From the NCBI RefSeq assembly GCF_000026545.1, contig NC_011601.1: a stretch of 64,000 bases of DNA, one strand, 5' to 3'. This stretch comes from Escherichia coli O127:H6 str. E2348/69 (lineage in GTDB: Bacteria > Pseudomonadota > Gammaproteobacteria > Enterobacterales > Enterobacteriaceae). Positions 45,001-51,000 of this stretch are shown one piece after another. Made by a program: the position numbers. Each line of letters opens with the position of its first letter. Position 1 is the first letter of the stretch.

Positions 45001-48000
45001 AGGAAGTAGCTGGGGGCTCTCTGAAGAAGGTAATAGCAGCTTTCCCTCGCGCCATTGTTGTGTAAGCGCCCCATCTGCGACGTCTTGTGAAAATTGTCCT
45101 GTCTGGCAACAATCGCGCCCATCTATATAGATGGACACGAACGATGAATTCCCAGACAAAAAAAGATATTCCCTGCTTCCGTTCTTATTTGCCTGATGCT
45201 CTGCGTTTAAGATTTGAAGATAAACTGACCATCCGGGCCATCGCTCAGCGTCTAGGTCTCAGTCATTCCACAATACATACGCTTTTTCAGCGATTTATTG
45301 CATCCGGTATCGCATGGCCATTGCCCGATTCAGTTTCATTAGCTCAGCTTGACGCCATCCTTTATGCCAACAGAAAGAAGGAATTAACAGAGCCTCAAAT
45401 CAGCGAAGGCACATGGCGAAAAGAACGGCGAGCCAGCTACAGCCGTGAATTTAAGGTCCGTCTGGCTAAGCAGGCATTACAGCCCGGTGCTGTTGTTGCC
45501 CGGATCGCCAGAGAGCACGGTATCAATGATAACCTGCTGTTTAAATGGAAAAGCCAGTACGAGGACGGCTTACTGAGCGATGATGACATACAGGAATGCA
45601 TGCCTGTCCCGGTGGCTCTGACTGATACGCCAGAGCCGACCAGACCAGTTACAAATCCCTTCTGGCGTAACAAGCCTGATGAGTGCCCTGAGAGTGATCC
45701 CGGAAACGTCCCACGGTGCGAGCTGCATCTTAAATCAGGTGTGGTAAAACTGTTTGACCCTCTCACTCCGGAAATGTTACGGGCGCTAATCCGCGAAATG
45801 AAAGGAGGTACCCGATGATAACGCTGCCAACCGGTACCAGAATCTGGATCATCGCTGGCATCACAGATATGCGTTGTGGCTTCAACGGCCTGGCTTCGAA
45901 GGTGCAGAACACGCTGAAAGATGCCCCGTTCTCCGGGCATATCTTCGTCTTCCGGGGCCGCAGTGGCAAAATGGTGAAAATACTGTGGGCCGATCGTGAC
46001 GGGTTATGCCTGTTCGCCAAACGCCTGGAACGGGGCCGCTTCGTCTGGCCGGTAACCCGGGAAGGGAAAGTGCACCTGACGCCAGCTCAGTTATCCATGC
46101 TACTGGAGGGGATCGCATGGCAACATCCCAAACGGACAGAACGGCCTGGCATCCGGATATAACCCGTGATAAAACAGGGGAATGAACAACACACTCCCCG
46201 ACGACATCGAGCAACTGAAGGCCCTGCTGATCGCACAGCAGGCTGTTATCGTCCGTCTGTCTGGTGAAATAACCGGCTATGCCCGCGAGATCAGCTCACT
46301 CAGAGCGCTGGTCGCTAAACTGCAGAGAATGTTGTTCGGTCGCAGCAGCGAGAAAAGCCGCGAGAAGATAGAAAAGAAGATCGCACGGGCAGAAACGCGT
46401 ATAACCGAGCTCCAGAACAGGCTTGGTGAGGCGCAGTTGCAACTCACCTCAATGGCCGGAGAGACAGCGCCGAAAACATCAGACTCTCCCGTCCGCAAAG
46501 CACTTCCGGCAACACTTCCCCGTGACAGGCAGGTTATCTCCCCGGCAGAAACCGAATGCCCCGTCTGCAGCGGCAAACTGAAACCGCTGGGAGAAAGCAT
46601 CTCTGAACAACTGGATATCATCAACACCGCGTTCAGGGTAATCGAAACGGTTCGCCCAAAACGGGCCTGCAGCCGGTGCGACTGTATAGTTCAGGCTCCG
46701 CAGCCACCAAACCCCATCGAGCGCAGTTACGCCAGTCCGGCTCTGCTGGCCCGCATAATCATGGCTAAGTTCGCCGAGCATCTGCCGCTGTACCGTCAGT
46801 CGGAAATCTATGCCCGCCAGGGCGTGGAGCTGCACCGCAATACGATGGGGCGCTGGGTTGACATCATGGGAGAGCAGCTTCGCCCGCTGTATGATGAACT
46901 GAAGCACTATGTGCTGATGCCGGGTAAAGTGCATGCCGATGACACGCCGGTAAATGTACTGGAGCCGGGTCAGGGTAAAACCCGTACCGGACGGCTGTGG
47001 GTCTATGTTCGTGACGATCGCAACGCCGGTTCGACCATGCCGGCAGCGGTGTGGTTCTCATACTCTCCCGACCGCAAAGGCATCCACCCACAGCAACATC
47101 TGGCGGACTACAGAGGTATCCTGCAGGCCGATGCATATGCGGGTTACAATGCTCTTTACGAAAGCGGTCAGGCAACCGAAGCGGCTTGTATGGCACATGC
47201 CCGACGCAAGATCCACGATGTACATGTCCGCCATCCAACGACAGTAACGGGAGAAGCGCTCCGTCGTATCGGGGAACTGTACGCTATCGAGGCTGAGATC
47301 CGCGGCAGTCCGGCAGAAGAGCGACTGGCGGTCAGAAAAGCCAGAACGGTACCGCTAATGCAGTCGTTGTATGAGTGGCTCCAGGGGCAGATGAACACGC
47401 TGTCGCGCCACTCGGATACAGCGAAAGCGTTCACCTATCTGCTGAAGCAATGGGACGCTCTGAACGAATACTGCCGCAATGGCTGGGTGGAGATCGACAA
47501 TAACCTGTGTGAAAACGCCCTCCGGGTAGTTGCACTGGGGCGGCGTAACTACCGGACGTGGTTTCTGCCAGGTAAAGGCAACGGAACAAAAGAATCATGG
47601 TTTTTCCGGAACCGGCCACACCATGAATGACACGATGCCCGTCACCAATATTTCTGGCCAGAATCTCCTGCTGAATATCCATAATTTTGATTTGTGAGTT
47701 CTGTTTCACGGTCACTTCAGGAAACAGATGGGCGCGCAGAATATCCCTCATCCGGGGTGTTACCCGGGTTCTGAACCCCGTGGTAAACATCCCGGCAATT
47801 TTTTGCCGGAATACCTCAGGTAAAACAGACTGCGTCATTTCATCCTGACAGATTGTCTGTGCTGAAGGAAAAATCTTTTCCACCGCATTCTCATTATTCC
47901 CTGTCAGTGCCTTCAGTTGCTGACGGGTAATGCGGGTAAACACCACACCATACGCCCAGGCCAGGTTCAGCCGCCCCTTATACTGACCGTCATTCTGCCG

Positions 48001-51000
48001 TAAGCACGGGTCAGCAGGTAAGGCATTAACCGTATCACAGGCATAACGACGAACCTGTACCAGCGGATTTATTTCTGATTTCAGAAGACCGTCGGTTTCC
48101 AGTGTAACCTGCTCCTGATTTGCTTTACGTAATGTGGATACAGTCCAGTCCTTGACCTCCAGAAATACCAGCCCGTTATCCGGGTCAATAATGACAAAAT
48201 CCGGATGTCGGTTTTTCCGTCCCACCGGGATATCGTACCAGACAAAGCAATCATCATTCAGAAAGCTCTCCAGTCGTGAAGCCACCCTCCTCTCCCCTGG
48301 CGTCATTCTCTCCTCAGTGGACGCTGATATATTTATCAGTTTCGCCATAACATACTCATGCTCCAGTAAAACCATAACCGTCGACATATTCCGTCTGAAG
48401 GGAATATGTCGAATACTTCATTAAAATACAAACATTTAGTAAACTTCACTACGCAAGTGCAATTATCCAGTCCCGTCTAATGATTAAAAACGATAACCAA
48501 CTCCAACAGTAAATCCATTGACCGAATGTTTTCCATATATATCTGCTTTAGTTCCCTCATACCCAACATTTACAGACATATTGCCCCACGGATTAATAAT
48601 AACACCAGCTGCATAAGCAAAATCAGTGGATTTTTTTGATACAGACTCACTTAAATATCCATCAGACTCATCAGCACCCACACTGTTTCTCCACTCATAA
48701 TCTCCCTTCGCTTTAGTATGAGATATCCCCACCAAACCATAAAAACTGATATAGTCATTCAGACGATAAGCTGGGCCTGCGAGAAATGAATAATATTTAA
48801 TATCAGCCTGATGTCTGTAAAAATCGTCAGCTTCATCGCGATGACTGTCCGCCCAATCACCTTTCATATACGAAAAACTCCCGACGACACTGACCGGAGA
48901 ATCCCACTCATATCGATATTGCAGATTCACTCCTTTAATATTCTTAAAGTCCTGTACCTTACTCTGAGCATAACCAGCCGATAGCGTATGATTATCAGCC
49001 AGTCTTGAACCACTCATAACAGATAATATCATTACTGAAATTATAACGAGTTTTTTTCATTTAACCCTCCTTCATTAATAAATGATTTCTGAAAATCAAA
49101 AAGGACCACACATCTCAAAAACATTATTTGAAATCATCATCAAAAAACTATAAATATATCACCTGACGATTTGAACACACTGACAAAAAACCAAGCATGG
49201 TAATAAACCGAACTCCCCACAAACTTCTGTTGCCTCAGATACTCCCCCCCCCTTTCCTCAGGCACAAATGTTGTTCCATAACGAACCAGCCCTGTTCCTT
49301 TAAACTCTGCATCAATGGCATAATGTATACTCACCAGACTGAGTTTGCTCCTGCATCATTATTTCGATACGTTAATGCATTGTTCATTGCATCCGGCATT
49401 CCCCATCGAATATTTACTTTGTTATATCAGGCAGCCCATAACCAGGTAAATTTTTAAGGCTTACTGACTGAATATTCAAAATGTGTTACATGTTATCAAA
49501 CCTTTAAAGAATAACCTGCTCTTCTTCATTGGCCGGATTTAGCTCAATCTTGTCAGCAAAACTAATATAAAGCCGTTCATAAAGAGAAGGATGTAGCTTC
49601 GTTATTTATCTTTTACATGTAACAGTGCCAGGGGATATTCCGCACATCTCTGTGGCTATCATCCCCACCACGTCTCCAGTGGCAGCACCTGCGGCACTGG
49701 CACGGGCGTTATTTCCCTGTACCACCGCCAGTGCAGCATTCACCACGGCATGGGCTGCCACATTTGCAGTCTTATTCACCACACCTGTAACCTGTCTCTT
49801 ATACACAAATCCCCACCCGGGGATTTGTGATGTCTGTCAGTCTGCTTTAGGGGGACTCTTTCCATCCGGTAGTTTCCTTCCTCCCCGGCAGCGATTTTTT
49901 GAACTTTTTCTTCACCCGTTGATCTTCTCTTATATTTCATTTTCTTCGGGTCTGTTATGGTACTTTCTGATTGTTATTCACTGGCTAACGAGCAGTCTGG
50001 ACATGCCCGTCTCGGTGATCCGCGTCGTACACGACGCCTTGTGTCACTGACCTCTTCTCTCGCTCAGCATGCAGGTCTTTCTATTGTGAAATCATCCCAC
50101 TTCACTGCTCAGGTTGAAGGTGCGTACCGCCTGATACGTAACCCGTCGGTGTCCCCGTAAGCCATTGCCGAAGCCGGATTTACTGCCACTGCAAGGGCAT
50201 GTGAGGCACATCCGCTGCTCCTCGCGCTGGAAGATACCACCACCATTAACTTCGGTCACAGTACGGCATTTGATGACCTGGGGAATACCACCACTAACCC
50301 GAAGACGCACGGGCTGCTGGCTCACTCTGTCCTGATGTACGCCCCCGACAGCGCCCTGCCAGTCGATCTTATCGAACAGCAGTGCTGGAGTCGTGCCACG
50401 GACACCTACGGTGTTAAGCACCAGCGAAAAGAACGTCCCTGTGAAGAAAAAGAAAGTTACCGCTGGCAGCAGGCTTCGGAGCGCATGGCCGAACGGCTGG
50501 GGGAGATACAGAAACAGGTAATCACTGTCTGTGACCGGGAAGCGGATATCTGGCATTACCTGCATTATAAAGTCAGCCGCGGGAAGCCACACGCTGAATG
50601 TGATGCAAAAAGGCGGGCGGGCAGCCCGCCAGGCCCGGATGCTCATCAGTTACAGCGAAGTCAGCATAAAAAATCCCGACAACAGCGGCCAGGCGCTCCC
50701 GCTCACGTATGTCTGTTGCCGGGAGCAGGCAGAGGACGGCGCCTGCTGGCATCTGCTGACGTCAGAAAAAGTGGCGAGTGCCGCCGATGCGCGACGTATC
50801 GTCAGCCATTACGAGCAACGCTGGCTGATAGAGGAATACCACAAAGCGTGGAAAAGTGGTGGTACATGTGTGGAATCGCTGCGAATGCAGACCCGGGATA
50901 ACCTTGAGCGCATGGTGGTTATCGCGGTGCGGGTGCTGGGCCTGCGGCAGGGAGGTATCAGTGAAGAAACACAAAATGACAGCTGTGAGAAAATACTGAC

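Follow-up and report, generated by a model that had tools for sequence, protein, structure and literature searches.

The NERD-domain reading frame beside IS66 sequence in the pheV island of Escherichia coli E2348/69 is probably the stump of a nuclease-helicase gene left by one old deletion

Why does a reading frame that encodes a nuclease domain and the beginning of a helicase run straight into the DNA of an insertion sequence (IS) in a virulence island of Escherichia coli? The frame in question, 318 codons long and the longest on the minus strand at its locus (47431–48387), lies in a 64,000-nucleotide stretch of E. coli O127:H6 str. E2348/69 (assembly GCF_000026545.1, contig NC_011601.1), which in its full length is called the window here. 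An initial annotation, made from the sequence alone, took this open reading frame (ORF) for the remnant of a gene pairing a NERD-like nuclease-related domain with the start of a Walker A NTPase, truncated by IS66-family DNA and possibly the stump of a defence-island gene lost to an IS-mediated deletion; it gave no strand. Our analysis indicates that the feature is very probably a pseudogene, consisting of the 5′ 45% of a single gene for a NERD nuclease fused to a UvrD-like superfamily 1 (SF1) helicase, and that it was left in the pheV island by one ancient deletion.

The domains named in the initial annotation are present. Pfam finds NERD at ORF residues 30–122 (E = 5e-11; 43.5 bits, cut-off 22.1), and the Walker A motif, HGVAGSGKT in context, can be read directly from the translation (Table 1). 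The stump matches the PADLOC family profile C3a187, "NERD+UvrD," at model positions 1–237 of 559 (E = 2.3e-60). Since it is 98.6% identical across 943 nucleotides to an intact gene in strain C8 and 100% identical to sequence in ~400 genomes, many of them O157:H7, a chance match is excluded. Motif I is the sole helicase motif that survives, together with the predicted nuclease residues D50, E64 and K66. The complete SF1 core (motifs I–VI and UvrD_C) is missing from the window copy, which is thus a remnant of a family member and not a functional one; lacking motifs Ia–VI, it cannot work as a helicase-nuclease. RefSeq lists it as a NERD domain-containing protein pseudogene, incomplete and missing its C terminus, so its status is already known at the level of annotation, within a heavily studied E. 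coli virulence island.

The extent first given for the remnant, ~275 codons at 47560–48387, has the right place, but its lower bound is off by 8 bases because the junction maps to 47552/47553, and its upper bound is the start of the longest ORF. The true start is likely the ATG at 48348, since the family consensus begins MA..., homologues align to ~14 residues upstream of the start chosen by the Prokaryotic Genome Annotation Pipeline (PGAP), and a tblastn match to a 59%-identical homologue, described below, starts at 48348. Counted from there, ~265 codons derived from the gene are followed by 40 codons of antisense IS66 sequence and a stop at 47431.

What did the gene encode before it was cut? 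A search for intact homologues of the N-terminal part, the check suggested at the outset, recovered the full architecture. Intact copies in strains C8, M217, RM13745, 2015C-3905 and SMBL are annotated by PGAP as a "3′-5′ exonuclease" of 581 amino acids (aa); read from the start equivalent to 48348, the protein probably has 595. In the C8 protein Pfam identifies NERD (residues 4–94), UvrD-helicase, AAA_19, UvrD_C and UvrD_C_2, which bears out the proposed pairing of nuclease and helicase; NCBIfam gives sub-threshold PcrA/UvrD/Rep/HelD matches only. The intact E. coli homologue matches the C3a187 profile at positions 15–556 of 559 (E = 1.4e-138).

A word-indexed homologue search gave only near-identical E. 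coli proteins, and the diversity of the family came from an exhaustive search of representative sequences, which returned 565 clusters (50% identity) at E ≤ 1e-30. Members that align end to end are ~570–690 aa long and usually align from their own residue ~15 to the PGAP start. Invariant in an alignment of 39 sequences are G18, D50, F51, G237, H238, R256 and the Walker A residues G243, G246, G248, K249 and T250. At least 90% conserved in the same alignment are E64, K66, the DExx box (D349, E350), DDAQ, NYRN, SKGLEF and motif VI (T571, R572). In PDB sequence and fold searches, the latter with an AlphaFold model (predicted local distance difference test score 87.3, predicted template-modelling score 0.80), the nearest solved structures were PcrA, UvrD and Rep; Schlafen 11/14 and Upf1 ranked lower, and no solved NERD-helicase fusion was found.

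Given this conservation of nuclease residues and of motifs I–VI, intact members look like active fusions of a PD-(D/E)xK nuclease and an SF1A helicase. To judge from its motifs, the intact protein would be an ATP-driven SF1A translocase or helicase whose N-terminal nuclease (D50...E64-x-K66) would cut the DNA onto which the protein loads, foreign or damaged DNA being the most plausible target. By analogy, defence may be its most likely function, the helicase driving a nuclease against foreign DNA much as Nhi works, and we consider the chances of this evenly balanced. The alternatives are a role in repair or recombination or one linked to the type VI secretion system (T6SS). Literature searches found no tested NERD-UvrD defence protein, and no experiments on the E. 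coli protein or on C3a187.

If the gene was once whole, how did it lose its 3′ half? A three-way comparison of the window, an intact IS66-type copy and intact helicase genes places the break at a single base. The IS66-type element beside the stump has an intact left inverted repeat at 45063 (GTAAGCG...; GTAAGCGCCCC...), carries tnpA (45144–45818), tnpB (45815–46162) and tnpC (from 46182), and is 99.5% identical to positions 467–2953 of a plasmid stretch from strain 2013C-4187 (L004), the identity ending at window position 47552. The intact copy on that plasmid spans L004 468–3171, or 2704 bp, as read from its terminal repeats. The window element is short by the final 214 bp, comprising 186 bp of tnpC and the right inverted repeat. 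Identity to the helicase gene, in the alleles of RM13745 and C5 (...GAAACCACGTCCGG/AAAG...), reaches the same C at 47552 at which identity to tnpC ends. The junction reads ...CGTAACTA[C]CGGACGTGG... from IS66 into antisense helicase sequence, the C being the sole overlap and no IS terminus intervening. The truncated tnpC frame (46182–47630, plus strand) meets the stump head-on and reads 26 codons into antisense helicase DNA.

One possibility is a classical adjacent deletion made by the IS66 transposase at the end of an IS. IS66-family DNA directly borders the gene, the gap between integrase and stump is made up of IS66-family fragments, and the region has clearly been remodelled by IS activity. 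However, such a deletion would keep the IS terminus, whereas the element stops 214 bp before its right end inside tnpC, no terminal GTAAGCG repeat is present at the junction and a single nucleotide is shared. We therefore consider a transposase-made deletion improbable. Because the junction has 1-nucleotide microhomology and no IS terminus, we infer illegitimate (non-transposase) recombination, which would have been the last step, and possibly the last of several, in a nest of IS66-family fragments. The statement that the frame runs into IS66 DNA was thus accurate, and so was the idea of a deletion stump, the 3′ half being gone from the window and from every genome with the junction; the IS-end mechanism is not supported.

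Counts across 5426 complete E. coli genomes bear on the number of events. The 5′ part of the gene is present in 1033 genomes and the 3′ half in 631 (about 12%). The junction, searched with a 300-bp query centred on it and fully covered, occurs in 403, including O157:H7, O55:H7, O111 and O127:H6. Since 403 and 631 add up to 1034, against 1033 genomes with the 5′ part, junction carriers lack the 3′ half anywhere in the genome, and these counts rule out an inversion in place of a deletion. In the window itself, tblastn and blastn did not find the 3′ half, and the ORF does not resume beyond the IS66 sequence. That 403 genomes share one junction and all lack the 3′ half points to one old deletion.

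Strain RM13745 shows what the site looks like with the gene whole. There the intact gene occupies the same pheV site, and window 47552–49738 (2.2 kb) matches at 97.4%. Beyond it, ~11.4 kb of RM13745 contain the remainder of the gene, followed by a 101-aa ORF, relics of ImpA_N/VasL genes, ibrA/ibrB, perC, a pair of UvrD-like and TraI genes and an integrase different from that of the window, where 4.9 kb of integrase and IS debris take the place of this stretch. In strain C5 (L007 6649–7754) the same gene has been independently frameshifted and truncated elsewhere and adjoins an M13 metallopeptidase gene. The NERD-UvrD gene decays recurrently.

Could the truncated frame nevertheless make a protein? 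The 318-codon chimeric ORF might still encode a functional NERD nuclease that works alone, has gained a new C-terminal tail and has been kept in attaching-and-effacing pathogens. It is open, D50, E64 and K66 are intact, the native upstream region shared with intact homologues is retained, and 403 genomes from several serotypes carry the identical sequence. Against this, family members listed as aligning end to end have the lengths given above, and shorter entries align partially. The break falls directly after Walker A, leaving half a RecA fold joined to 40 residues of antisense IS66. PGAP flags the ORF as a pseudogene, the same gene was independently frameshifted and truncated in C5, and recent spread of the island accounts for the carriers being identical. 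An uninformative scan, with promoter and terminator counts at the level of shuffled sequence, gave no minus-strand hit to a sigma-70 consensus promoter upstream of the ORF. A functional chimera is thus most improbable. We think it hardly less improbable that the ORF is expressed as a stand-alone nuclease in pathogens positive for the locus of enterocyte effacement, or, in a related proposal, that the intact protein of ~595 aa is a single-gene immunity system in a fixed T6SS slot.

Where, then, did the gene come from? In E. coli, T6SS relics invariably lie on both sides of the intact gene, with a tssE pseudogene and an Ail/Lom gene upstream and ImpA_N/VasL fragments downstream. A 59%-identical homologue (P0121; L008 1–11357) lies inside an intact T6SS cluster of GCA_025215155.1, in the order tssM-tssA-tssF-tssG-tssJ-tssE-159-aa ORF-NERD/UvrD-ImpA_N/VasL. 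By tblastn the E. coli relics are orthologous to tssE and vasL of that cluster, its TssE matching window 49590–49212. From the shared gene order and the orthologous relics it follows that the stump, the pagC-like Ail/Lom gene and the tssE pseudogene represent what is left of one end of a T6SS cluster. Pfam finds nothing in the downstream 101-aa ORF of E. coli, which is often itself a pseudogene.

These neighbours raise the possibility that the intact gene belongs to the T6SS cluster, as an accessory component or a passenger, and is not defence-island cargo, in which case the stump would be T6SS debris. The position of the 59%-identical homologue between tssE and an ImpA_N/VasL gene, and the same order in the E. 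coli relics, fit this idea. However, homologues of 37–46% identity (in Aliivibrio, Microbulbifer, Neisseria, Wohlfahrtiimonas and metagenomes) have no T6SS neighbours and no conserved partner, no role for a nuclease-helicase in T6SS function is known, and the gene more likely entered a variable slot in the cluster by insertion. That it is a T6SS component or passenger is thus unlikely.

The defence-island origin proposed in the initial annotation also finds no support, since the conserved neighbours are T6SS relics and the distant homologues stand in mixed, mostly housekeeping contexts. Those homologues, which also include some from Photobacterium and from metagenome-assembled genomes of sulfur oxidisers, are solitary genes, with an occasional TIR-domain gene, integrase, or HNH or methyltransferase-HNH gene next to them. 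When ORFs within 6 kb of the gene were clustered across 40 loci, no conserved partner emerged: neighbour families were common only within a genus, and the few clusters that crossed genera were housekeeping genes (argG, sensor kinases, molybdopterin oxidoreductase). The scan of genome contigs yielded relatives of 37–46% identity and no Enterobacteriaceae homologue.

Other genes of helicase and nuclease type, DEAD-box helicase and ATPase genes among them, occur in the variable stretch next to the E. coli gene. In 2015C-3905 (L006 15382–18063) the variable slot downstream of the intact gene encodes an 893-aa protein with AAA_11/AAA_12 (an Upf1-like SF1 helicase) and DUF2726. The genes ibrA (PAPS-reductase-like) and ibrB (ParB-like) are repeatedly linked to the intact gene: they flank it directly in SMBL (L049 12596–16601) and elsewhere (L003, L005, L006) lie 2–3 kb downstream, past the T6SS relics. 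A functional link of the NERD-UvrD gene with ibrA/ibrB is possible.

We propose the following history. As in related E. coli, an ancestral island would have carried the whole gene as the last part of a decayed T6SS cluster, in the order tssE pseudogene, Ail/Lom, NERD-UvrD, 101-aa ORF and ImpA_N/VasL relics, with ibrAB, perC and other genes beyond these on the integrase side. A deletion in the ancestor of the island now found in attaching-and-effacing pathogens would then have taken everything from codon ~266 towards the tRNA side. One of its endpoints lies in the NERD-UvrD gene and the other in tnpC, at a point 214 bp before the right end of the IS66-type element.

Several points weigh against this account. 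The mechanism is read from a single junction. No intermediate genome, with an intact IS66 element beside an intact gene, was found. Given the nested IS66-family fragments, the history could have had several steps, an IS-mediated event preceding the others. In all 403 genomes the ORF has no interruption and retains its nuclease residues, although recent spread of the island may be the whole reason. Finally, the evenly balanced idea of defence draws on domain content and on a candidate-level PADLOC/CRISPR-accessory model, and its genomic context is weak.

The setting of the locus is well defined. Window 41057–59057 (18,001 bp) is identical, without mismatch or gap, to the E2348/69 record NZ_CP059840.2, and the same 18-kb stretch is 99.2% identical to O157:H7 PV15-279. 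By annotation, the pheV island runs from tRNA-Phe through a P4-type integrase, the IS66-family debris, the NERD-UvrD stump, the Ail/Lom "pagC-like" gene and the tssE pseudogene to IS4, espL2, nleB, nleE, IS630 and efa1. In O157:H7 this island is called O-island 122, OI-122 (PMC8565820). The tRNA, the integrase, the pagC-like gene, espL2, nleB, nleE and efa1/lifA all occur in the window in the order expected of OI-122. We take the E2348/69 version to be the island called IE6, a name that a literature search did not confirm. Although the stump was first described as lying next to the integrase, the two are ~3.4 kb apart, and the gap of ~3.3–3.4 kb consists solely of IS66-family fragments, three nested pieces at 44232–47552. 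For the piece nearest the integrase, an inverted ISEc8 fragment annotated without its N terminus, the megablast match spans query positions 72/74–733.

Table 1. Positions of the stump, the junction and neighbouring features in the window
Feature	Position	Strand	Basis
NERD-UvrD helicase-nuclease stump, codons 1 to ~265 of ~595	47552..48348	-	Homology to intact genes; PADLOC; RefSeq
NERD (PD-(D/E)xK) nuclease domain	48022..48300	-	Pfam PF08378; predicted catalytic D50, E64, K66 intact (numbering from 48348)
Walker A/helicase motif I, GVAGSGKT	47599..47622	-	Direct sequence reading
Out-of-context 40-codon tail of chimeric ORF, antisense IS66 tnpC, up to stop codon	47431..47551	-	ORF translation and junction mapping
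Deletion junction	47552..47553		Three-way comparison: window, intact IS66 copy, intact helicase genes
IS66-type element, intact left end, cut inside tnpC	45063..47552 (2490 bp)	+	Identity to intact copy; Pfam on tnpC; annotated without C terminus
Short piece (133 bp) of another IS66-like element, tnpA region	44929..45061	not assigned	Megablast match annotated IS66-like tnpA
ISEc8 (IS66 family) 3′ fragment, C-terminal tnpC and right end	44232..44892	-	Pfam DDE_Tnp_IS66, IS66_C; megablast to ISEc8 copies
P4-type tyrosine integrase of island	42888..44153	+	Pfam Arm-DNA-bind_3, Phage_int_M, Phage_integrase; annotation
tRNA-Phe (pheV), island attachment site	42615..42690	+	ARAGORN; RefSeq annotation of E2348/69
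Ail/Lom outer-membrane protein gene ("pagC-like" of OI-122), upstream neighbour of stump	48484..49032	-	Pfam Ail_Lom, E = 8.5e-23; annotation; PMC8565820
tssE (GPW/gp25) pseudogene, T6SS relic	49140..49605	-	Annotated as frameshifted with internal stop

Two further observations concern the surroundings. The 58 bp beside the plasmid IS66-type copy of strain 2013C-4187 (L004 3172–3229) are the same as window 44992–45049, inverted, the insertion point differing by 12 bp; the sequences suggest that the IS66-type element may have a preferred target inside another IS66-like element. At the far end, efa1/lifA (lymphostatin) is full length and 100% identical to that of E2348/69; a stop-free frame of at least 2056 codons (57831–63998, plus strand), with a likely start at 57864, runs past the end of the window. 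In O157:H7 of the EDL933/Sakai type efa1 is truncated, which makes the window one of E2348/69 type and not of O157:H7 type.

By itself the stump matters little, since it is already annotated as a pseudogene and its virulence island is among the best studied in E. coli. Its wider meaning lies in "module 1" of OI-122 (the stump, the pagC-like gene and the tssE pseudogene), which is a 2.2-kb relic of the pheV island backbone ending a decayed T6SS cluster. This backbone also occurs in non-pathogenic E. coli, and all 403 carrier genomes bear one and the same deletion junction. The intact gene, found in about 12% of complete E. coli genomes, is a common nuclease-helicase and would be a cheap candidate for a phage or plasmid defence assay.

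How does the gene compare with known systems? In the naming of Shah et al. 2018, C3a187 stands for "Cas type 3 Associated" cluster 187, whose three genes (Dole_0738 is one example) lie beside type III-A/B CRISPR cassettes (PMC6546367). The intact E. coli protein has the same domain order, NERD followed by a UvrD-like helicase, and matches the profile end to end. In contrast, the window copy is truncated, and the E. coli copies have no annotated cas genes nearby: none was annotated within 7–14 kb on either side in six E. coli contexts, and none was among the neighbours called in metagenome contigs. With no type III CRISPR-cas cassette adjacent, we rejected accessory status for the E. coli copy.

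Like Nhi and Nhi-like proteins, which are single-protein anti-phage systems, the intact protein joins a nuclease domain and an SF1 helicase in one polypeptide. Its helicase is UvrD/PcrA-like SF1A, whereas the helicase core of Nhi is Upf1-like SF1B. Among the best 25 of 35 PADLOC matches to the full protein, and among all 3 matches at E ≤ 1 to its N-terminal 200 aa, there is no Nhi model, and we consider membership in Nhi unlikely. PF08378 NERD is listed for "Nhi-like" and for Mokosh type I in a review table (PMC10952713).

The helicase core belongs to the same UvrD/PcrA/Rep superfamily as GajB of Gabija and matches several GajB profiles (best E = 2.5e-21). However, these matches are partial, and in the E. 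coli protein the nuclease is fused and is NERD rather than TOPRIM. Gabija was rejected because no GajA (ATPase-TOPRIM) gene is adjacent, the neighbours being Ail/Lom, the 101-aa ORF and T6SS relics.

Finally, the stump is the same DNA as the OI-122 module-1 ORFs Z4318 and Z4320 of O157:H7. Primer pairs for typing OI-122 by "Z4318" and "Z4320" have been published (PMC4763077); they map to window 47801–47894 and 48205–48279, respectively, both inside the stump. Both were treated as separate OI-122 ORFs and not as one truncated NERD-UvrD gene (PMC4763077, PMC8565820). Our analysis indicates that these two markers, used in typing Shiga toxin-producing E. coli, are two pieces of one truncated NERD-UvrD gene.

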